DNA from: an uncultured Actinomycetes bacterium
GTDB lineage: Bacteria; Actinomycetota; UBA4738; HRBIN12
NCBI GenBank assembly: GCA_963704725.1
Contig: OY969934.1
Location: forward strand, 128,001 to 192,000
Direction of reading: 5' to 3'
Length of the DNA: 64,000 nt
Positions within the stretch are counted from its first letter, which is position 1. Each line of letters opens with the position of its first letter. A program made the position numbers and the translations under genes. Below are positions 23,137-30,745 of this stretch, piece by piece. The notes under the pieces were generated by a model. It searched no databases, was not told the origin of the DNA, and saw only the letters and a list, made by a program, of their open reading frames with translations.

Positions 23137-23961
23137 GTGAGCAGCGAAGCCTGGGCGCTCGCCAACCGGGCCGCCGCCGTTGCCGGCGTGACCCTGCGTG
23201 CCCTGTCCTCCCTGGAGGACGCCGATCGCATCGCGGGCGTCCTCGTCGCGACGTGGGGGGAGGAGCAGGTCGTGCCCCGCGAGATGCTCCGTGCCCTCGC
23301 CGAGAGCGGGAACGAGCCGTACGGAGCGTTCGCCGGTGAGGAGCTCGTCGGGTACGTCCTGGGCTGGGCGGGGGTGGACCCGGGAGAAGGCGTCCACGTC
23401 CACTCGCACATGCTCGCGGCGCTCCCGGCGTGCCGGCACCGAGGCGTGGGGTACGCGCTGAAGCTCGCCCAGCGAGCCCAGGCCCTCGAGCGAGGGATCC
23501 GCACCGTTCGGTGGACCTTCGACCCGCTCGTGGCGCGCAACGCCTACTTCAACCTGAGCAAGCTGGGCGCCGTCGCGGATCGGCTGGAGCGGAGCTTCTA
23601 CGGAGAGATGACCGACTCGGTCAACCGCGGCGACCGAAGCGACCGGCTCGTCGTGCGCTGGGACCTGGAGCGGGAGCCGGGATCTCGGGCGACCGGCGCG
23701 CCGGGATTCCAGGACGCGATCTCGATCGGACGGGAAGGCCCGCATCGCTCGGATCCCTCGGTCGACGGTGCCGCTCGCGTCTTCGTGCAGATCCCTGAGG
23801 AATACCACGCCCTGCGCGAGGCGGACCCGTCGGCCGCGGGCCGCTGGCGGGACGTGGTGGCCGAAGCCCTCGAGGCGTGCTTCGGCGCCGGCCTGCACGC
23901 GACGGGATTCCGTCGCACCGAGGCCGTGAGCGGCTACCTCATGACCCGAGACGCGTCGTGA
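23137..23961 (+). CDS. GNAT-family acyltransferase (putative D-amino acid N-succinyltransferase)
   Basis: HSHML, GVGYALKLAQR, WTFDPL..RNAYFNL and DRL motifs; coupled to the OSBS/NSAR gene. Confidence 0.8.
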   Translation: MSSEAWALANRAAAVAGVTLRALSSLEDADRIAGVLVATWGEEQVVPREMLRALAESGNEPYGAFAGEELVGYVLGWAGVDPGEGVHVHSHMLAALPACRHRGVGYALKLAQRAQALERGIRTVRWTFDPLVARNAYFNLSKLGAVADRLERSFYGEMTDSVNRGDRSDRLVVRWDLEREPGSRATGAPGFQDAISIGREGPHRSDPSVDGAARVFVQIPEEYHALREADPSAAGRWRDVVAEALEACFGAGLHATGFRRTEAVSGYLMTRDAS

Positions 23962-25070
23962 CGAGAGTCCGGTCGGTCGAGCTGCGGTTGGTCGGCCTCC
24001 CGCTCGTCCGTCCCTTCCGGACGAGCTTCGGCGAGATGACGCGCAAGGAGTGCGTCCTCGCGCGCGTGGAGACCGACGCGGCGGTCGGCTGGGGCGAGTG
24101 CGTCGCCGGGGTCGAGCCGGACTTCTCCGGCGAATGGAACGAGGGAGCCTGGCTCGTGCTGCGCGACTTCCTGATCCCCGCCCTGTTCGGCGCGGGGGAC
24201 GTTTCGCCGCACGATCTGGGGCCGGCGTTCGCGTTCGTGCGAGGTCACCCGATGGCCAAGGCGACCCTCGTCGACGCCTTCCTCGACGCGGCGTTGCGGG
24301 CCGAGGGCCGTTCCCTCGCGACGTTCCTCGGCGCCGAACGGGAGCGCGTGACGTGCGGCGTGTCGGTGGGCATCGCGCCGACGACGGAGCGGCTGCTCGA
24401 GCAGGTGGGTGGCTACCTCGCCGAGGGCTATCGCCGGATCAAGCTGAAGATCGAGCCCGGCACCGACGTCGAGCGCGTCCGCGCCGTCCGCGAGGCCCAC
24501 CCCGGCATCGTGCTCTCGGTCGACGCGAACGCCGCGTACACGCTGGAGGACGTGAAGGTCTTCCGGGACCTCGACGAGCTCGACCTGCTCATGGTGGAGC
24601 AGCCGCTCCACCATGAGGATCTGGTGCAGCACGCGAAGTTGCAGTCCGAGATCGAGACCGCGGTGTGCCTCGATGAGTCGATCCGCTCGCCGGCCGACGC
24701 CGCCGCCGCGATCGAGCTGGGCGCCTGCCGGATCGTCAACGTGAAGCAGGGGAGGGTGGGCGGCGTGCTCGAGGCCAGGCGTGTGCACGATGTGTGTGCG
24801 TCGCAGGGGGTGCCGGTGTGGTGCGGGGGCATGCTGGAGACCGGGATCGGTCGCGCCACGAACGTGGCGCTCTCGGCCATGCCGGGCTTCACGCTGCCCG
24901 GGGACACCAGCGCGAGCGCGCGGTACTTCCCCGAGGACCTCACGACGCCGTTCGAGCTCTCGCCGGACGGGACGATGGCGGTGCCCGGCGGTCCGGGCAT
25001 CGGGGTGGATCCGATCCCGGAGCGTCTCGAGGCCTGCACCCTGCGGCTCGAGCGGTTGGAGAAAGAGTGA
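23958..25070 (+). CDS. menC: o-succinylbenzoate synthase / N-succinylamino acid racemase (enolase superfamily)
   Basis: PFRTSFG, KLKI, DAN, EQP, LDES and WCGGMLE motifs. Confidence 0.88.
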   Translation: MTRVRSVELRLVGLPLVRPFRTSFGEMTRKECVLARVETDAAVGWGECVAGVEPDFSGEWNEGAWLVLRDFLIPALFGAGDVSPHDLGPAFAFVRGHPMAKATLVDAFLDAALRAEGRSLATFLGAERERVTCGVSVGIAPTTERLLEQVGGYLAEGYRRIKLKIEPGTDVERVRAVREAHPGIVLSVDANAAYTLEDVKVFRDLDELDLLMVEQPLHHEDLVQHAKLQSEIETAVCLDESIRSPADAAAAIELGACRIVNVKQGRVGGVLEARRVHDVCASQGVPVWCGGMLETGIGRATNVALSAMPGFTLPGDTSASARYFPEDLTTPFELSPDGTMAVPGGPGIGVDPIPERLEACTLRLERLEKE

Positions 25071-25266: not shown

Positions 25267-25983
25267 GTGAACGATGAGGGGCGGTCCATGAGGAAACGGG
25301 TCATCCGGGCGGGCGAGATCGAGATCGAGGACTCGGAGGGCAGGGTCCGCGCCCGCTTCGGGGTGACGAACGAGGACCTCCCGTTCCTGTCGTTCTACGG
25401 AGCGGACGAGAAGCTCCGGGCCCGGTACGGCGTCCAGCCGGACGGCTCGGCCGGGCTCGCCATCGCCGACGAGGAGGGAAAGGTCCGAGCCACCTTCGGG
25501 CTCTTCTCGGACGGCTCGGCCAGCATGGCGATGGTGGACCGCAACGGGAAGGTGCGTGCCAAGTTCGGCCTGGGCTCCGAGGGCTCGCCGACGCTGGCGC
25601 TGCGGAACAAGGACGGTGAGCTCGGCTTCGTGTACTCGCTTGCCCAGCAAGGGTCTCCGACGATCTCGCTGCAGGACGAGGACGGGAAGGTGCGCGCCCG
25701 GCTCGGCCTGGCGGCGGAGGGATCTCCGATCCTGCGGCTCCTGAACAAGGACGGCGAGCTCCGCGCCATCATGGGGCTCACCGGCGACGGCGCACCGGTC
25801 CTGCAGTTCCTCGGCAAGGACGGGGACCCCACGTGGACCGCCCCGAGCTCGTTCGCGGGCCCGGCCTCCGACGAGGGACCCGCCGCCAAGACCGGACGAT
25901 CGTCGAGGAAGGATCCCGTCACCGAGGATGCCCCCGCCGCGTCACCAGCCCCGGCCGAGCCGGAGGCCTCGGAGGGGAGCTGA
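25267..25983 (+). CDS. Hypothetical protein with about seven 23-aa beta-type repeats
   Basis: Repeats of D/N-x-x-G-K-V-R-A-x-F/L-G-L-x-x-D/E-G-S-P-x-L; low-complexity C-terminal tail; start may be ATG 25288. Confidence 0.85.
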   Translation: MNDEGRSMRKRVIRAGEIEIEDSEGRVRARFGVTNEDLPFLSFYGADEKLRARYGVQPDGSAGLAIADEEGKVRATFGLFSDGSASMAMVDRNGKVRAKFGLGSEGSPTLALRNKDGELGFVYSLAQQGSPTISLQDEDGKVRARLGLAAEGSPILRLLNKDGELRAIMGLTGDGAPVLQFLGKDGDPTWTAPSSFAGPASDEGPAAKTGRSSRKDPVTEDAPAASPAPAEPEASEGS

Positions 25984-25989
25984 AGCCGC

Positions 25990-26499
25990 CTGACGGGGTG
26001 GTGGGTCGCGGCCTTCGTCGTGCAGTGGATCCTGCTCGCGGTGCTCACCGTCGTCGTGGTGGCGCTGGCGCGGCAGATCGGCGTGCTGCACCTGCGGCTG
26101 GACCCGCTGGGGGCGCTCGAGGTGGACGACGAGGGCCCCCCGATCGGTGAGGCGCCGCCCGAACGCACCTCGCGGACCCGCGACGGCACGCCGGTGCTCG
26201 TTGGGGGACCGGGGCCGATGCGGCTCCTGGCCTTCGTCTCCGAGACGTGCCCCATCTGCGAGCGTGTGCTGCCCTCGCTGCCCGCGGCCGCCGCCGCCGC
26301 CGGGCTGATCCCCCAGGTGGTGTCGGACCCCGAGCTCGAGGCGGTCTACCGGGTGCCGGGCGTGCCGTTCCTGGTCGTGTTGGACGAGCTCGGCGTGGTG
26401 CGCTCGAAGGGGACCGTCAACTCGCTCGAGCAGATCGAGGGCCTCGTCGACACAGCGCGGCGGCGCATCGACGACGACGCGCGGGTTCGGACCGGCTGA
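25990..26499 (+). CDS. MauD-like membrane-anchored thioredoxin-fold protein
   Basis: N-terminal TM, LARQIGVLHLRL, GP.IGE.AP, CPIC, VPGVPF cis-Pro and KGTVNSLEQIE motifs; start is CTG 25990 or GTG 26020. Confidence 0.85.
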   Translation: MTGWWVAAFVVQWILLAVLTVVVVALARQIGVLHLRLDPLGALEVDDEGPPIGEAPPERTSRTRDGTPVLVGGPGPMRLLAFVSETCPICERVLPSLPAAAAAAGLIPQVVSDPELEAVYRVPGVPFLVVLDELGVVRSKGTVNSLEQIEGLVDTARRRIDDDARVRTG

Positions 26500-27023
26500 T
26501 GGGAGCGGTGGCCCGTGCGGAGACCGAGCTCGCCCGCCGGACGAGCCGGCGATCGTTCCTGGGGAAGGTGGGACGCGCCGTCGTCGCGCTCGCCGGCGGG
26601 CCCATGGTCGCGGTAGCGCTGGCGCCGGAGCGGGCCGAGGCCAACCACATCTGCGGGCACACGTACACGACGGGCTCCTGTCCCCACCCGTACGCGCCGC
26701 TCTCGCGGACCGACGCCTACGGCTTCCCGATCCATCCGCACTTCGGCTACCCGGTCGACGACAACGGCTTCATCTACCTCTCCTCGCGACAGCCGCGCCG
26801 CAAGGTGTGCCAGACCGTGGTGCCCGAGCACTACCCGTTCGTCCATCACCCCCGATACGGCGGTGGATGGAGCCGATGCTGCAACGGCCGGGTCCGTCAC
26901 ATCCAGGACTGCTGCTCGTCATCGCGGACGCGGATCAACGGCGACGGCTCGGTCCGGGGGTACTGCGCCCGGAGCCTCCGCGTGTTCTGCATCACGTACC
27001 GTGAGCTGGACGTCCGGTGCTGA
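26499..27023 (+). CDS. Tat-exported Cys-rich protein resembling the methylamine dehydrogenase light chain (MauA-like)
   Basis: ATG overlaps the upstream stop (TGATG); SRRSFL twin-arginine motif, AEA cleavage site, 10 Cys, GWSRCC ... IQDCCS ... YC ... FC pattern. Confidence 0.8.
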   Translation: MGAVARAETELARRTSRRSFLGKVGRAVVALAGGPMVAVALAPERAEANHICGHTYTTGSCPHPYAPLSRTDAYGFPIHPHFGYPVDDNGFIYLSSRQPRRKVCQTVVPEHYPFVHHPRYGGGWSRCCNGRVRHIQDCCSSSRTRINGDGSVRGYCARSLRVFCITYRELDVRC

Positions 27024-28234
27024 GCGAGCCGCTCGTCGCGGCGGTGGTCGCCGCGTCGGTCGTCGCCGGGATCACGGCGCTGTTCGGCCCCTGAGGGCTC
27101 TCGATGGTGGAGACCATCACCCCCGTGGTGCACGGGGGCCGGCGGAGCAGGTGGGCGACGTTCCTCGCCCTGCACGTCGCCGGCGCCACGCTGGCGGCCG
27201 TGGCGTTCGGCGCCCTGCTCGGCGAGGCCGGCGCGCTGCTCGGCGCGCCGTGGGGGAGTGCGGGCGTCGCGCTCGTCGCCGGGTCGGCGGTCCTGTACCT
27301 GGCGCGGGAGACGGTCGGCCTGCGGATCCCGGTTCCCCAGCTCCGCCGCCAGGTCCCCGACTGGTGGCGGACGTTCTTCGGGTTCGGGCCGGCGTCCTTC
27401 CTCTACGGGCTCGGGCTCGGGGTGGGGTTCCTCACGTTCCTGTCCGGCGGCACGCTCGTGGTGGTGGTGGTGGCGGCCGTCGCCGGGGGCCGGCCGGCGC
27501 TCGGGGCGATGCTGATGGGGCCCTTCGGGCTGGCGCGGGGGATGACCGCGCTGGTCGCGATGCGCGCCCGGACGCCGGAGGGCGGCTCCGAGCTCGTCGG
27601 GCGGATCGCCCGGTCTGCGGGCCGTCCCGGATGGCGGGTGGTGCGCTCGGCGGCGCTCGCGGCCGTCGCCGTCGCCGGGCTCGCGGCCGGAGGTCGGCTC
27701 GAGGGCCGGCAGCTGGGAGCCGTTGCGGCGGCGGTCGTCGCCGTGGCGTTCGCCGCGGCCGGCGTGGCCAAGCTGGCGGATCTTCGCTCGTGGCGTCGGG
27801 GCCTCGGCGCGTACGTGCTCCCCCGCCCCGTGGAGCGCGCCGCCTCGGTCGTGGTCCCGGGCGCCGAGCTCGTGGTGGCGACACTGCCGTTCCTCGGACT
27901 GCGCTCGACGGCGGGGCTCGTCGCCCTCGTGGCCCTGGCGGCCTTTTCCGCGGCGACGGTTCGCGCCCGGATCCGGGGCGGCAGCCGGCTTGCGTGCGGC
28001 TGCTTCGGATCGGCGACGCCGCGCGACTACCGGCTCCTGCTCCTTCGCAACGCGCTCCTGGCCGTGGCGGCGATCTCGGCCTGGCGAGGCGGGGGGGATG
28101 CGCCGGTCGCCGCGCTCCGGATGCCGGCGGGATCGGAGCTCCTGCCGGCTGCCATCGTCGCGACCGGGCTGGGGCTCGCCGTGTGGGCCGGGGCGCAGAC
28201 CGCGATCGCCGTTCGGCGCGGGGCCCGGCAATGA
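27017..28234 (+). CDS. MauF/CcdA-like + MauE fusion membrane protein; candidate selenoprotein (in-frame UGA at codon 26)
   Basis: GTG at 27017 overlaps the upstream gene end and is in frame with ORF 27104; reads MLSEPLVAAVVAASVVAGITALFGP-TGA-GLSMVETITP; RRQVPDWW and LYGLGLG.GF.T motifs; C-terminal AKL...AEL...CGCFG...LRN MauE motifs. Confidence 0.78.
27095..27122 (+). promoter_or_regulatory. Putative bacterial SECIS element
   Basis: Perfect stem GATGGT (27103-27108) / ACCATC (27113-27118) with G-initiated loop GGAG, plus possible lower GGG/CCC pairing, directly 3' of the in-frame TGA. Confidence 0.6.
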
Positions 28235-28827
28235 AGCGGATCGCGCTCGCGGTCGCCGGGATGGCCGCCGTAGCCGTGGCGGCCCTCGCGCTTCCGGCCG
28301 GGGCGACACACACGAACCAGACGGACCCGAACGATACGCCCGGCCGCCTCGACGTTCGCGGGGTCGTGCTGGCTCACGACGAGACGCCGCGGTGGCGCAT
28401 CTCCACGTTCGCCTCGTGGACGACGCGGCAGCTCTGGGACGCGGGCGGGCTCGTCGTCGAGCTCGACACGACGGGCGAGGCCGGGATCGACCACCTCATT
28501 GTCGTCCGATCGGACGGCCGGAAGCTCGTCGCCACCCTCTTCCGGGTTCGGGCCGACGGCTCCGAGCGCCGGGTCGCCAACCTGCACGCCGCCAAGGACG
28601 GCCGGGCGGGGGTCGCGGTCTCGGTCGCGCTGCACCGGCTGACGATCGGCTCCGAGCGAACCTCGTACTTCTGGTCGGTGCTCTCGATGTTCACGGGCGC
28701 GGCGTGTCCCCAGACCTGCCTCGACCACGTGCCCGACGAGGGCATGATCGAGCAGCCGCTGCCCGGGATCACGCCGTCGCCCACACCCACGACGACACCG
28801 AGCCCGACGCCCGGTCTCGGCGGTTGA
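28231..28827 (+). CDS. Secreted hypothetical protein with a Pro/Thr-rich tail
   Basis: MKRIALAVAG...AGA Sec-pathway signal peptide; ATGA overlap with the upstream gene; CPQTC pair; PSPTPTTTPSPTP tail. Confidence 0.8.
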   Translation: MKRIALAVAGMAAVAVAALALPAGATHTNQTDPNDTPGRLDVRGVVLAHDETPRWRISTFASWTTRQLWDAGGLVVELDTTGEAGIDHLIVVRSDGRKLVATLFRVRADGSERRVANLHAAKDGRAGVAVSVALHRLTIGSERTSYFWSVLSMFTGAACPQTCLDHVPDEGMIEQPLPGITPSPTPTTTPSPTPGLGG

Positions 28828-28879: not shown

Positions 28880-30745
28880 ATGTCCGCCGACGCCCTGATC
28901 ACCAACGCCAACGGGCGTCGCCCCGGGCTCGGCCGGGGGCGGGAGCCGGCGGCCGCGCTCACCGCGGTGGTCGAGGACCTCGCGGGCGAGCTGTCGCTCC
29001 GCCCGCTCCTCGAGCGGATCCTCCTGCACTCGACCGAGCTGCTCGGGTGCGACGCCGGATCGATCTGCCTCGTCGACGAGTCCGCCGGTGTCTACCGCAA
29101 GGAGGCGGACATCGGGGTGGCCTGCCAATCGGGACGCGTCTTCCCCCTGACGGAGGGCGTGACCGGCGCGGTCGTGAAGCGTCGGGGCCCGGTCATCTTC
29201 GCCGACTACGCCGAGGTGCCGGGCGGCCACGTCCGGCCGGAGGACCGCGCGTCGCTGCGCGGCGTGATCGGGGTCCCGATCTGGTGGCGTGGCGAGATCG
29301 TGGGGTCCTGCGTGGTGTTCTCCCGAGACCCCGGGCGCACGTTCTCCCTGCAGGACGCCGAGCTGCTCGGGCTGTTCGCGAAGCACGCCGCCATCGCCGT
29401 GACGAACGCGCGCCTGCACGAGGCCTCGGAGGCCAACGCGAGGGCGGAGGCGACCGCGGCCGAGAGGGAGCGCATCGCGCGGGAGGTGCACGACACCGTG
29501 GCGCAGGGGCTGGTTTCGGTCCTGCTCCAGCTCCGGGCCGCCGACGGCGCGGTCGCCGAGGGGCGGTCCGAGGACGCCGTGGCCGCGCTCCGCGAGGCGC
29601 GCGCGACCGCAGAGGCCGCCTTCGAGGAGACCCGCCGCAGCGTGCTCGGCCTGGCGCCGTCGCCGCTCGAGGGCCGCTCGCTGGAGGAGGCGCTGGAGCT
29701 CGAGGTCGACTGGGCGAACCGGATCGGCGTGGCGGACCTGCGGCTGGTGACGGCGGGACCGCAAGTACCGTTGCCGGCTGAGCTGGCGCTCACGCTCTTC
29801 CGCATCGCGCAGGAGGCGCTCACGAACGCGCTCCGCCACGCGCGGGCACGATCGGTGCGGTTCGGGCTCGTGTACGGGCCGGCCGACGTCACGCTGCTCG
29901 TCCAGGACGACGGGGCGGGGTTCGACCAAGCGCAGATCGATCAGGCCGGCGAGCTCGGGCACGGGGGCCTCCGGGGGATGGCCGAGCGGGCGCACCTTCT
30001 CGGAGGCACGCTCGAGCTCGACTCGACCCCAGGATGGGGAACGCGCGTCCGCGCCTCGATCCCCCTCCCGCTGGCTTCGCCCGCCGATGCCGAGCCGCTG
30101 GTCGGTCCCGTCCGGGTGCTCGTGGTCGACGACCACGCGATCGCCCGGGCGGGGATCGTCCGGCTCCTGTCCTCGGCGGGCGCGGCGGGGAGCGACCCCG
30201 CGCTTCGGATCGTCGGCGAGGCCTCCTCGGGCGAGGAGGCGGTGGCGGCCTGGCGCCAGCTTCGGCCGGACGTGGTCCTCATGGACCTCCGGATGCCGGG
30301 CGGTGACGGGATCGACGCGATCGCGCGGATCCGTCGCGAGGACCCGCAGGCTCGCATCGTGGCGCTCACGGCGTTCACGAACGACGATCTGGTCGCCGGC
30401 GCGATCCGAGCCGGCGCGCGCGGCTACGTCGGCAAGAGCGCAACGGTCGCGGAGCTCGTCGGCGCAGTGCTGAGCGCCTCGCGCGGCGACACAGTGCTGT
30501 CGGGTGCGGCGGCGGACCGTCTCCGCTCGCACCTGAATGGGTCGGGCGGCTACCTGGCCCTCACCGACCGCGAGCGCGAGGTGGTTCGCTACCTCGAACG
30601 CGGAACGCCAGATCGGGAGATCGCCGCGGCGCTGCATATCTCGATCAAAACGGTCGAGAAGCACGTCGGCTCCATCCTGCGCAAGACCGGCAGCCAGAAC
30701 CGCACGCAGGTTGCCGCGTTGGCGCGTGAGTACACTCGCGCCTAG
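28880..30745 (+). CDS. Hybrid GAF - HisKA_3 histidine kinase - REC - LuxR HTH regulator
   Basis: RERIAREVHD, QEALTNALRHA, DDGAGF, VDDH, VLMDLRMP and LTDREREV...TVEKHV motifs in one ORF. Confidence 0.9.
   Translation: MSADALITNANGRRPGLGRGREPAAALTAVVEDLAGELSLRPLLERILLHSTELLGCDAGSICLVDESAGVYRKEADIGVACQSGRVFPLTEGVTGAVVKRRGPVIFADYAEVPGGHVRPEDRASLRGVIGVPIWWRGEIVGSCVVFSRDPGRTFSLQDAELLGLFAKHAAIAVTNARLHEASEANARAEATAAERERIAREVHDTVAQGLVSVLLQLRAADGAVAEGRSEDAVAALREARATAEAAFEETRRSVLGLAPSPLEGRSLEEALELEVDWANRIGVADLRLVTAGPQVPLPAELALTLFRIAQEALTNALRHARARSVRFGLVYGPADVTLLVQDDGAGFDQAQIDQAGELGHGGLRGMAERAHLLGGTLELDSTPGWGTRVRASIPLPLASPADAEPLVGPVRVLVVDDHAIARAGIVRLLSSAGAAGSDPALRIVGEASSGEEAVAAWRQLRPDVVLMDLRMPGGDGIDAIARIRREDPQARIVALTAFTNDDLVAGAIRAGARGYVGKSATVAELVGAVLSASRGDTVLSGAAADRLRSHLNGSGGYLALTDREREVVRYLERGTPDREIAAALHISIKTVEKHVGSILRKTGSQNRTQVAALAREYTRA

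Follow-up and report, generated by a model that had tools for sequence, protein, structure and literature searches.

In the 64,000-nucleotide stretch of DNA analyzed here (the window), positions 27017..28234 of the forward strand very probably form a single gene for a polytopic membrane selenoprotein of 405 residues, in which an in-frame UGA would be decoded as selenocysteine (Sec26) with the guidance of two hairpins, and which would work in a relay with a MauD-like partner. The read-through gene (405 codons plus stop, translated with TGA as a residue) joins a putative DsbD_2/CcdA-like domain to a MauE domain. If the UGA at 27092 is read as Sec, gene callers drop the first membrane helix together with the likely redox-active residue of what is a conserved protein in Actinobacteria, and hundreds of public gene calls would lack both. 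The Sec reading, if true, also adds a new membrane-embedded selenoprotein family to a phylum that is not known to have rich selenoproteomes.

Results

An in-frame UGA within conserved coding sequence

The reading frame opens at GTG 27017-27019, which overlaps the stop codon of the upstream gene (TGA 27021-27023); no possible start lies between it and the preceding in-frame stop at 27002-27004. It runs through VLSEPLVAAVVAASVVAGITALFGP to TGA 27092-27094, continues with GLS to ATG 27104 and ends at the stop 28232-28234. The start, the overlap, the position of the TGA and the length of 405 aa had all been given in the original prediction and were borne out on re-translation. The position of the start codon holds ATG, GTG or TTG in 64 of the 75 loci with data there. 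The first 25 codons (27017..27091, + strand), absent from gene calls, encode the first half of transmembrane helix 1, a hydrophobic peptide conserved as ..A-S-x-x-A-G-[WILV]-[ST]-x-L-[FWYH]-G-P, with a mean entropy by codon position of 0.79/0.67/1.14. An open stretch of 25 codons is uninformative by itself in DNA of 72-78% G+C; the signal comes from comparison between loci.

The public protein call for this gene (P0003) is the 376-aa form that begins at ATG 27104. Nearly all public homologues likewise have query residue 30 as their first position, and their N-terminus (MVETITPVVHGG) hardly varies. Truncation of calls at a TGA should leave just this pattern, and it had been foreseen for standard callers. 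Calls of the family are typically 374-385 aa long and are named "MauE/DoxX family redox-associated membrane protein" or "hypothetical protein".

TGA occupies the codon of the proposed Sec26 (27092..27094, + strand) in 78/78 orthologous loci, all of which differ in sequence and share 63-87% nucleotide identity with the window, as well as in 20/20 distant paralogues. A sequencing error is implausible, as the codon recurs in 78 assemblies. A genome search at the level of the order gave an in-frame TGA in all 128 listed matches that span residue 26, and in none of the 22 listed matches that start at residue 50 or later; when genomes flagged as unpublished were left out, 116/116 spanning matches had the TGA and 16/16 later-starting ones lacked it.

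On both sides of the UGA the neighboring residues (Gly, Pro, Gly, Leu and Ser) are maintained while their codons vary synonymously at third positions. The Gly-Leu-Ser codons between the UGA and ATG 27104 (27095..27103, + strand) encode invariant or nearly invariant amino acids and vary almost only at third positions (entropy by codon position 0.11/0.00/1.01): across the 78 loci Gly27 is encoded by GGC (33), GGG (29), GGA (10) or GGT (6), and the following Leu by CTG (43), CTC (26) or others. We dropped one further argument, that the codon is always TGA and never TAA or TAG. The true terminator of the gene is also TGA in 70/71 loci, so the exclusivity of TGA is weak evidence.

Two continuous homologues, the only Cys forms found, have cysteine at the Sec26 column: P0260 (SSCGCSM; ..NWSSCGCSMVGTIAPVVY..), which matches the N-terminal domain in BLASTP with 39% identity (E 2e-21), and P0302 (SPCGFSM; ..TWSPCGFSMIETIGPV..). 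Both also keep the equivalents of Gly27 and Met30. Homologues had been expected to show either TGA or Cys here with conservation on both sides, and this is what the 78 loci, P0260 and P0302 display. With only two Cys forms seen, the family has an unusually strong preference for Sec over Cys.

These patterns bear on a reading as two genes, in which a transmembrane micropeptide of 25 residues ends at a real UGA stop and a separate MauE-family protein of 376 residues starts at ATG 27104. A restart there is mechanically possible, since UGA-GG makes a Shine-Dalgarno-like GAGG 6 nt upstream of an ATG that is invariant in 78/78 loci; every public gene call uses this start (such a product would begin with MVETITPVVHGGR), and TGA is the usual terminator of the gene, as noted above. 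However, the 9-nt "spacer" evolves like codons, with amino acids fixed and third positions free, the Met is kept in the continuous Cys forms, where no restart is necessary, and the conserved GG is accounted for by the Gly after the U/C column. The models, moreover, place the N-terminal helix with confidence as the first of the domain, and two genes would leave the frozen synonymous sites and compensatory hairpin changes described below without a role. We therefore consider two genes very unlikely.

A dual output from the locus seems somewhat less improbable, though still unlikely: full-length protein would be made with selenium, and without it termination at the UGA and re-initiation at ATG 27104 would yield a product devoid of helix 1 and the selenol. 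Stop, GAGG and ATG lie within 12 nt, a termination-reinitiation geometry, and decoding of UGA by SelB competes with release factor 2. Against this, the conserved residues Met30 and Gly27, both of which the Cys forms have as well, fully account for the ATG and the GG, and the loss of half of a kinked transmembrane helix, as modelled, would probably misfold the protein.

Selenocysteine machinery in the genome

The genome encodes a tRNA-Sec (75 bits, anticodon tca) together with SelA (472 bits), SelB (293 bits) and SelD (376 bits), each above its cut-off; the search for these four components, proposed along with the original prediction, thus recovered every one of them. The same genome has a second gene with a UGA, of FdhA type, with the motif SCNRTUHAPS.

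SelA is over cut-off in 178/201 genomes of the order. Co-occurrence with Sec machinery does not discriminate at such a frequency and was dropped as support for the Sec reading.

It could also be supposed that the UGA encodes an ordinary amino acid (Trp, Gly or Cys) through an altered code or near-cognate read-through, and one public protein, P0149, does have W at the Sec26 position. This entry is, however, a fused and frame-shifted call that continues from the upstream gene, and it fits a caller's TGA=W table. TGA serves as the terminator of this gene, of its upstream neighbor and of 70/71 orthologues, from which we take the genetic code to be standard; moreover, the Sec system is complete and the structure after the UGA is conserved. 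We regard this explanation as extremely improbable. Given the TGA in 78/78 loci, the Cys homologues, the Sec machinery and the conserved hairpins, comparative sequence evidence supports the original prediction that TGA 27092-27094 is best read as Sec26, and we infer Sec insertion on these grounds.

Two hairpins downstream of the UGA

Bacterial SECIS hairpins adjoin the UGA on its 3' side, with a spacing rule between the UGA and the loop. In the window, the hairpin GAUGGU-GGAG-ACCAUC (H1, 27103..27118, + strand) starts 8 nt after the TGA, and its parts are a stem GATGGT (27103-27108), a loop GGAG (27109-27112) that starts 17 nt from the U of the UGA, and a stem ACCATC (27113-27118). This SECIS candidate with its 6-bp stem is present exactly as originally described. 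A second perfect hairpin, CCCCCGUG-GUG-CACGGGGG (H2, 27120..27138, + strand), was absent from that description.

Both hairpins are conserved in 78/78 loci, and H1 is invariant in orthologues. Synonymous sites are frozen in both hairpins, at Ser29 (TCG 100%) and Thr33 (ACC 100%) in H1 and at Pro36 (CCC 98%) and Gly40 (GGG 98%) in H2, whereas elsewhere in the gene the entropy is 1-2 bits. Among amino acids with four or six codons, these four, all inside H1 or H2, are the only ones with codon-use entropy near zero.

Whether the hairpins covary depends on the sequences compared. Within 35 orthologues RNAalifold found 0/14 covarying pairs in H1 and H2, as follows from the invariance of both hairpins there. 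In a set of 40 sequences made of orthologues and two paralogous families, 2/6 pairs of H1 (98.7% of cells paired) and 5/8 pairs of H2 (94.2%) change on both sides. Jointly, 7/14 pairs do so and 96.2% of cells pair; this signal comes down to a few substitutions that separate three clades, and the peptide encoded there is conserved too. The covariation score of 0.329 compares with 0.103 for shuffles, 0/500 of which reach 0.329, and slid controls score at most 0.19. The covariation proposed as a check on the hairpin thus emerged once paralogues were included and not within orthologues. RNAfold energies of the hairpin region (z = -1.17 and -1.85) do not fall significantly below those of shuffles at this G+C, and an Rfam scan of the element gave no matching family, only a chance snoRNA row (E = 2).

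We propose H1 and H2 as a candidate two-hairpin SECIS under selection, to which SelB may bind. Such a covarying two-hairpin element would widen the range of bacterial SECIS shapes for prediction programs to accept.

Domain architecture

The N-terminal domain (residues 1-228; 27017..27700, + strand) has six helices. An AlphaFold model of the 405-aa protein has a pLDDT of 87.9 and a pTM of 0.75, with residues 1-30 at pLDDT 91-96, and a model of the N-terminal domain has a pLDDT of 89.8 and a pTM of 0.88. Helix 1 is predicted as two segments, 4-23 and 25-38, with a kink at G24-P25-U26.

The original prediction had pointed to a Pro-Cys-Gly redox motif of MauF/CcdA-type proteins at the end of the first transmembrane helix. 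The likeness to CcdA has indirect support: the homologue P0260 passes the Pfam model DsbD_2 (PF13386) with 34.4 bits against a cut-off of 24.9, and in an hhalign comparison of a 66-row alignment of family members (A3) with the genome's own CcdA, GPU lies opposite SPC in a sensible register, though with a probability of only 1.4%. The window protein itself reaches neither Pfam model: it has no match to DsbD_2 or DsbD_TM at E <= 0.1 and is not among the matches of a genome search with PF13386, and DsbD_TM is matched by 2 of the 66 members of A3 (best E 8.4e-6). In the same hhalign comparison the GWTPC of CcdA helix 4 faces GFLTF, and alignments A3 and A5 contain no conserved Cys in residues 100-230.

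Structural comparison gave little beyond this. Foldseek with the N-terminal domain model placed CcdA 5vkv sixth, as a weak match (E 0.37, TM 0.33, 22% identity), VIA-align reached a best Z of 6.6, with NqrE and RnfA/E at 5.3-5.9, which is background level, and Foldseek with the whole model returned meaningless matches (best E 0.088). Sequence searches of solved structures found no match for profile A3 and only chance-level rows for P0260. Homology to DsbD_2/CcdA is therefore supported transitively, through P0260, and at the level of the superfamily only. This indirect support suggests that the domain is a distant CcdA/DsbD_2 relative, with Sec26 at the place of the redox Cys of helix 1.

The C-terminal part is clear by comparison. 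The MauE domain (residues 233-355; 27713..28081, + strand) matches Pfam PF07291 with 74.5 bits (cut-off 27), as do 61/66 members of A3, and its best structural match is NACHO/TMEM35A (9h9e_C; Z 11.5, rmsd 2.4 Å, 116 residues aligned). It contains a Cys327-Gly-Cys329 motif (27995..28003, + strand) that is invariant in 24 homologues and at least 90% conserved in the 66-row alignment. The positive-inside count would place this loop on the cytoplasmic side.

Genomic neighborhood

The genes around the selenoprotein are on the same strand and travel with it. They comprise a conserved repeat protein (25267..25983, +; syntenic in 72/80 loci, 83-96% identity in the best rows), which matches no Pfam family at cut-off; a MauD-like membrane-anchored protein of thioredoxin fold with a CPIC motif (26020..26499, +; 72/80 loci), which TIGR02661 matches with E 7.9e-25 and 87.4 bits, below the equivalog cut-off of 188.6; a cysteine-rich secreted protein with a TAT signal (26496..27023, +; 74/80 loci; TIGR01409 19 bits, cut-off 16.7), whose stop overlaps the selenoprotein start; and a secreted protein (28231..28827, +; 72/80 loci) with a signal-peptide-like N-terminus and no Pfam or NCBIfam family, whose ATG overlaps the selenoprotein stop (ATGA).

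In the protein atlas, 23 of the 30 clusters nearest to the cysteine-rich upstream protein fall within a set, 17% of whose members have PF02975; we take its likeness to MauA as a lead. A sequence search against solved structures gave no match for this protein. The methylamine dehydrogenase light-chain model TIGR02659 reached 15.2 bits against a cut-off of 196.85, over the signal region only, and the heavy-chain model TIGR02658 had no match in the genome (95% complete, one contig). A tblastn search of the MauE domain against plasmids for an annotated mau cluster also returned no match.

The neighborhood speaks to the chemistry of the protein. It might be a selenoprotein but take no part in a disulfide relay, Sec26 forming with Met30, Glu32 and His39/His53 a site that binds or transports soft metals or chalcogens (Cu, Hg, selenium or sulfur species), as in the wider DsbD_2/TauE-like group. 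Some relatives of the N-terminal domain are indeed named "sulfite exporter TauE/SafE family" by their source, the second Cys of CcdA is absent, and Met30 is invariant and His53 nearly so in the 66-row alignment; in addition, several membrane selenoproteins in a 2026 review table are transporters or metal-handling proteins (PMC13188914). However, family scans of the cluster proteins revealed no metal-handling genes, and in three paralogous operon types a thioredoxin-fold gene is nearby and MauE is fused or adjacent. At the two paralogue loci examined, thioredoxin-like genes occur in both and a separate MauE gene in one. Since a thioredoxin fold and MauE are kept across the three operon types, thiol-disulfide chemistry fits better, and we judge a metal or chalcogen site to be rather unlikely, if the least improbable of the rival explanations.

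Discussion

Our findings argue for a membrane selenoprotein whose synthesis and function might proceed as follows. Translation would begin at GTG 27017, in coupling with termination of the upstream gene, and UGA 27092 would be decoded as Sec26 by SelB and tRNA-Sec, guided by H1 (27103-27118) and H2 (27120-27138). Transmembrane helix 1 of the six-helix domain would then be kinked halfway along at Gly-Pro-Sec-Gly, with Sec26 inside the kink. A selenol/thiol-disulfide relay across or within the membrane appears the most likely function, the direction and sidedness of electron flow being conjectural. Its partner would be the MauD-like thioredoxin with its CPIC motif, and the relay may form, reduce or isomerize disulfides of the TAT-exported cysteine-rich protein encoded upstream.

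MauE and CcdA-like proteins are poorly understood, and a single selenol at the kink of helix 1, fused to a Cys-Gly-Cys motif, offers a testable handle on both. A bolder proposal, which we put forward tentatively as possible rather than probable, is that these transmembrane redox proteins form a family that depends on selenium almost obligately, a CcdA-like transporter in which a single mid-membrane selenol replaces the two-cysteine shuttle and works with the Cys-Gly-Cys of MauE, and which is decoded by way of a novel two-hairpin SECIS. Its members would occur widely in one order of soil Actinomycetota, and the family would perhaps be a main reason why the Sec machinery is kept there. If true, this would give a concrete mechanism for MauE and its helpers.

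We found no report of this selenoprotein family in a literature search; the supplements of selenoproteome surveys lay outside its scope and could list it. The MauE-fusion family does not appear in the 2026 table of 119 prokaryotic selenoprotein families (PMC13188914).

The candidate SECIS resembles bacterial elements of the fdhF type in being a stem-loop structure directly 3' of the UGA and inside the coding sequence, but those consist of one long stem, whereas here two short hairpins are adjacent. The apical loop of H1 is G-rich and starts 17 nt from the U, in which H1 resembles the hairpin predicted for the FdhA-type gene of the same genome.

With CcdA/DsbD (PF02683, PF13386) the protein shares about six transmembrane helices, a helix 1 kinked at the Pro before the redox residue and association with a thioredoxin-fold partner of extracytoplasmic type. 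The Pro-redox motif reads SPC in the genome's CcdA, GPU in the window protein and SPCG in P0302. Unlike CcdA/DsbD, which have Cys at this place, the window protein would have Sec; it lacks the Pro-Cys of helix 4, is fused to MauE, and has no significant structural similarity to 5vkv.

As in the MauE/MauD pair of methylamine dehydrogenase clusters, a clear MauE domain, here C-terminal, goes with a MauD-like neighbor, and the position that MauA holds in mau clusters is filled by the TAT-exported cysteine-rich protein. Canonical MauE differs in being a separate protein of ~175 aa that has no Sec domain.

Among known selenoproteins, NqrE (PF02508), YeeE/YedE (PF04143), SaoP and MerT-like proteins have Sec in or next to membrane domains, as would be the case here, according to the same table (Table 1 of PMC13188914). 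TsoB (NF045694), a rhodanese/DsbD fusion-like bacterial selenoprotein, is listed there as DsbD-related (PMC13188914). An NCBIfam scan of the read-through protein gave no family at E <= 0.01, and it is therefore not a TsoB member; TsoB combines a UxxxxU motif with two Sec residues and a rhodanese domain, whereas the protein described here would combine GPUG, with one Sec, and MauE.

Conservation of the in-frame UGA

The read-through gene begins at GTG 27017, which on inspection of the sequence overlaps the end of the preceding gene (stop 27021-27023) and is the first possible start past an in-frame stop at 27002-27004. From there, 25 hydrophobic codons lead to TGA 27092-27094, proposed to be read as Sec26, followed by Gly-Leu-Ser, ATG 27104 and the stop at 28232-28234, for a total of 405 codons. 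A perfect hairpin (H1; stem GATGGT, loop GGAG, stem ACCATC; 27103-27118) starts 8 nt past the TGA, and a second perfect hairpin (H2; 27120-27138) comes next. This layout agrees with the original prediction at every coordinate it gave. The region has a G+C content of 72-78%, so neither a 25-codon open stretch nor a stable hairpin is remarkable alone, and the case for recoding therefore rests on comparison; folding z-scores of the hairpin region after the TGA are -1.17 and -1.85.

We compared 80 related loci at the DNA level, from MAGs labelled Actinomycetota or Actinomycetes. All 77 loci with upstream DNA have an in-frame stop exactly four codons before the Met, within conserved flanks (..A-S-x-x-A-G-[WILV]-[ST]-x-L-[FWYH]-G-P-*-G-L-S-M-V-E-T-I..). 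The codon is TGA in 78 of 78 rows, the window counted; these rows are all distinct and share 63-87% nucleotide identity with the window. The proposed start position holds ATG, GTG or TTG in 64 of the 75 loci with data. We also searched 201 genomes from the window's order in six frames: among the 150 matches listed, every match spanning residue 26 (128/128) holds at least one in-frame TGA and every match without a stop (22/22) starts at residue 50 or later; without genomes flagged unpublished, these counts are 116/116 and 16/16. Two or three in-frame TGAs occur in some six-frame matches; these may represent additional Sec codons or terminal stops.

Two homologues have Cys in this column, and together with the TGA rows and the two-sided conservation they form the pattern expected of a Sec codon by the original prediction. 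P0260 (273 aa; source organism of lower G+C) runs through the column without a break (..NWSSCGCSMVGTIAPVVY..), and in its 175-residue alignment (39% identity, E 2e-21) Cys faces residue 26; P0302 (470 aa) reads ..TWSPCGFSMIETIGPV.. there. A public 481-aa call, P0149, has W at the TGA column. It joins the upstream cysteine-rich protein, in a shifted frame, to the predicted selenoprotein, and we rejected this call, running on from the upstream gene, as evidence for Trp; its W is probably the product of the caller's TGA=W table. An altered genetic code was ruled out because TGA terminates both the predicted selenoprotein gene and its neighbours.

Truncated homologues and the possibility of two genes

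Standard callers had been predicted to truncate the gene at ATG 27104, and public databases bear this out. The read-through product matched 978 relatives, of which the best 120 are 355-385 aa long, with a query coverage of 80-93% (mostly 92-93%); none of these 120 reaches the first 29 query residues. When 1.84 billion cluster representatives were searched exhaustively with HMMER, residue 1 of nearly every full-length match fell on query residue 30. Among the names that these shortened calls bear are "MauE/DoxX family redox-associated membrane protein" and "hypothetical protein". Relatives of P0260 are mostly ~200 aa as well, starting MV[GSE]TI. The homologues' N-terminus, M-V-E-T-I-T-P-V-V-H-G-G, is almost invariant, against 56-78% overall identity, which would be odd for a true N-terminus.

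The same arrangement could be read as two genes, with a 25-residue micropeptide ending at the UGA and translation starting afresh at ATG 27104: this ATG is invariant and the GAGG within UGAGG is Shine-Dalgarno-like. However, the Met and Gly are kept in the Cys forms too, the hairpins would be left without a role, and the 9-nt "spacer" evolves as codons. Its Gly codon is GGC in 33 rows, GGG in 29, GGA in 10 and GGT in 6, its Leu codon is CTG in 43, CTC in 26 and others in the rest, and entropy by codon position is 0.11/0.00/1.01 over the three codons. We regard two genes as very improbable. A mixed output, with Sec insertion and a restart when selenium is short, also seems unlikely, though less so. 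Recoding of the UGA as Sec is the reading we retain.

A two-hairpin element downstream of the UGA

Within orthologues, RNAalifold detected no covariation in H1 or H2 because both hairpins are invariant there. Over 63 full-length genes, codon-use entropy at conserved residues of four- and six-codon amino acids is ~1-2 bits all along the gene, except at Ser29 (TCG 100%), Thr33 (ACC 100%), Pro36 (CCC 98%), Gly40 (GGG 98%) and Pro25 (89%), all in or beside the hairpins.

Twenty distant paralogues (31-39% identity, N-terminal domain only) all have TGA, in the context ..W-S-P-*-G-x-S-M-[LV]-G-[ST].., and retain both hairpins despite different sequences and encoded peptides: H1 as GAUGCU/AGCAUC or GCAUGGU/ACCAUGC, H2 as CCCCGCUC/GAGCGGGG or CCCCAUA/UAUGGGG. 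Once they are included, the covariation sought by the original prediction emerges, as a few changes among three clades rather than many independent events: in 40 sequences aligned without gaps, 96.2% of cells are paired and 7 of 14 pairs have changed on both sides. Covariation scores 0.329 here; shuffles give 0.103 (0/500 reach 0.329), and partners slid by 1-3 columns give at most 0.19. The H1 loop starts 17 nt from the U of the UGA, similar to the predicted hairpin of the FdhA-type gene of this genome. No Rfam family matched the two-hairpin element.

Selenocysteine machinery

The expected machinery is all encoded in the window's genome, a single contig of 3.45 Mb that is 95% complete, with every component over its cut-off: tRNA-Sec (75 bits; ARAGORN anticodon tca), SelA (472 bits), SelB (293 bits) and SelD (376 bits). 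Its second predicted selenoprotein gene is of the FdhA (formate-dehydrogenase) type; its TGA falls in frame within the classic ..SCNRTUHAPS.. motif (G000:C1:1791321-1791731; locus L103:1501-1911). Of the 201 genomes sampled from the order, 178 have SelA over cut-off, which would be unusually uniform Sec use for the phylum, and SelA matches in 103 of 105 high-quality genomes. Judged from these matches the whole lineage uses Sec, and co-occurrence of the family with the machinery is therefore uninformative.

Domains, fold and a possible relay

In Pfam the read-through protein matches MauE alone (residues 233-355, 74.5 bits), and no NCBIfam model matched. AlphaFold2, run on the 66-row family alignment, gave pLDDT 87.9 and pTM 0.75, with the N-terminal 30 residues at 91-96 and helices 4-23 and 25-38 broken at G24-P25-U26. 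The MauE domain model resembles NACHO/TMEM35A (9h9e_C; Z 11.5, rmsd 2.4 Å, 116 residues aligned), a DoxX-family protein, which would fit MauE/DoxX.

The N-terminal six-helix domain (residues 1-228; pLDDT 89.8 and pTM 0.88 alone) had no convincing structural match in fold searches: Foldseek places CcdA 5vkv sixth (E 0.37, TM 0.33), and NqrE and RnfA/E (Z 5.3-5.9) are within noise for helical proteins. The likeness to CcdA-type proteins named in the original prediction stands for P0260, which passes Pfam DsbD_2 (34.4 bits, cut-off 24.9), but not for the window's protein at the level of Pfam membership. In the family alignment, 2 of 66 members match DsbD_2 and 2 match DsbD_TM (best E 8.4e-6). Against the genome's own CcdA, hhalign places GPU on SPC and GFLTF on GWTPC, at a probability of only 1.4%. 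From these comparisons we conclude that the domain is probably a distant CcdA/DsbD_2 relative, assigned here to neither Pfam family, which would keep the helix-1 redox position as Sec and have lost the helix-4 cysteine.

By the positive-inside rule on the model helices, the N-terminus would lie outside and the loop with Cys-Gly-Cys, invariant in the MauE domain, in the cytoplasm, which would suit a reductive, CcdA-like direction. Sec26 may be a membrane-embedded nucleophile in a selenol/thiol-disulfide relay joining the MauE Cys-Gly-Cys, the CPIC of a MauD-like protein and the cysteines of an exported protein. The main functional rival, a metal- or chalcogen-handling role instead of a disulfide relay, we consider doubtful.

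Gene neighbourhood

An o-succinylbenzoate synthase-type enolase-superfamily gene (menC-like; 23877-25070, +; TIGR01928, 303 bits) precedes the cluster in 64 of 80 loci. The cluster's most conserved gene (25267-25983, +; 72/80 loci, 83-96% identity in the best of these syntenic loci) encodes a 238-aa protein of ~20-residue repeats (..DG.KVRA.FGL..) for which no family reaches cut-off. It is followed by a membrane-anchored MauD-like protein that has a thioredoxin fold and CPIC (26020-26499; 72/80; TIGR02661 at E 7.9e-25, short of the equivalog cut-off), a TAT-signal cysteine-rich protein (26496-27023; 74/80), MADH-light-chain-like as an Atlas lead only, and, past the read-through gene, a secreted protein (28231-28827; 72/80). 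Stop/start overlaps at ATGA 26496-26499, GTGCTGA 27017-27023 and ATGA 28231-28234 suggest that all genes from the MauD-like one to that of the secreted protein are translationally coupled. The gene at 28880-30745 (+), for a 621-aa hybrid protein that combines GAF, HisKA_3, HATPase_c, receiver and LuxR-type HTH domains, is not syntenic with the cluster (4/80 loci, weak matches).

Two paralogous N-domain-only families (..WSP-TGA-G.SM..; L109-L128; L129:4079-4750; L130:4266-4949 (-)) occur in related genomes, likewise truncated by callers. Among the genes beside them are an ECF sigma factor, thioredoxin-like genes and a separate MauE gene; a Redoxin/AhpC-TSA-type gene lies near both of two paralogue loci examined, and the separate MauE gene near one.

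Comparison with known systems

Our comparison establishes a conserved, probably recoded UGA with an RNA element, a candidate SECIS, and places the residue in its fold, domain fusion and operon. The MADH heavy chain of methylamine dehydrogenase clusters had no match in the window's genome; the cluster is therefore a mau-like maturation module and not a methylamine dehydrogenase cluster. Full-text literature searches, with supplementary tables of selenoproteome surveys left aside, gave no report of the family. The 119 prokaryotic selenoprotein families and subfamilies in Table 1 of a 2026 review (PMC13188914) include no MauE, CcdA, PF13386, PF02683 or PF07291 entry; the nearest is TsoB, rhodanese/DsbD fusion-like. 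Beside these, the present proteins would form a new, apparently Sec-dominated membrane protein family that combines an ordinary Sec-recoding mechanism with an unusual two-hairpin element.
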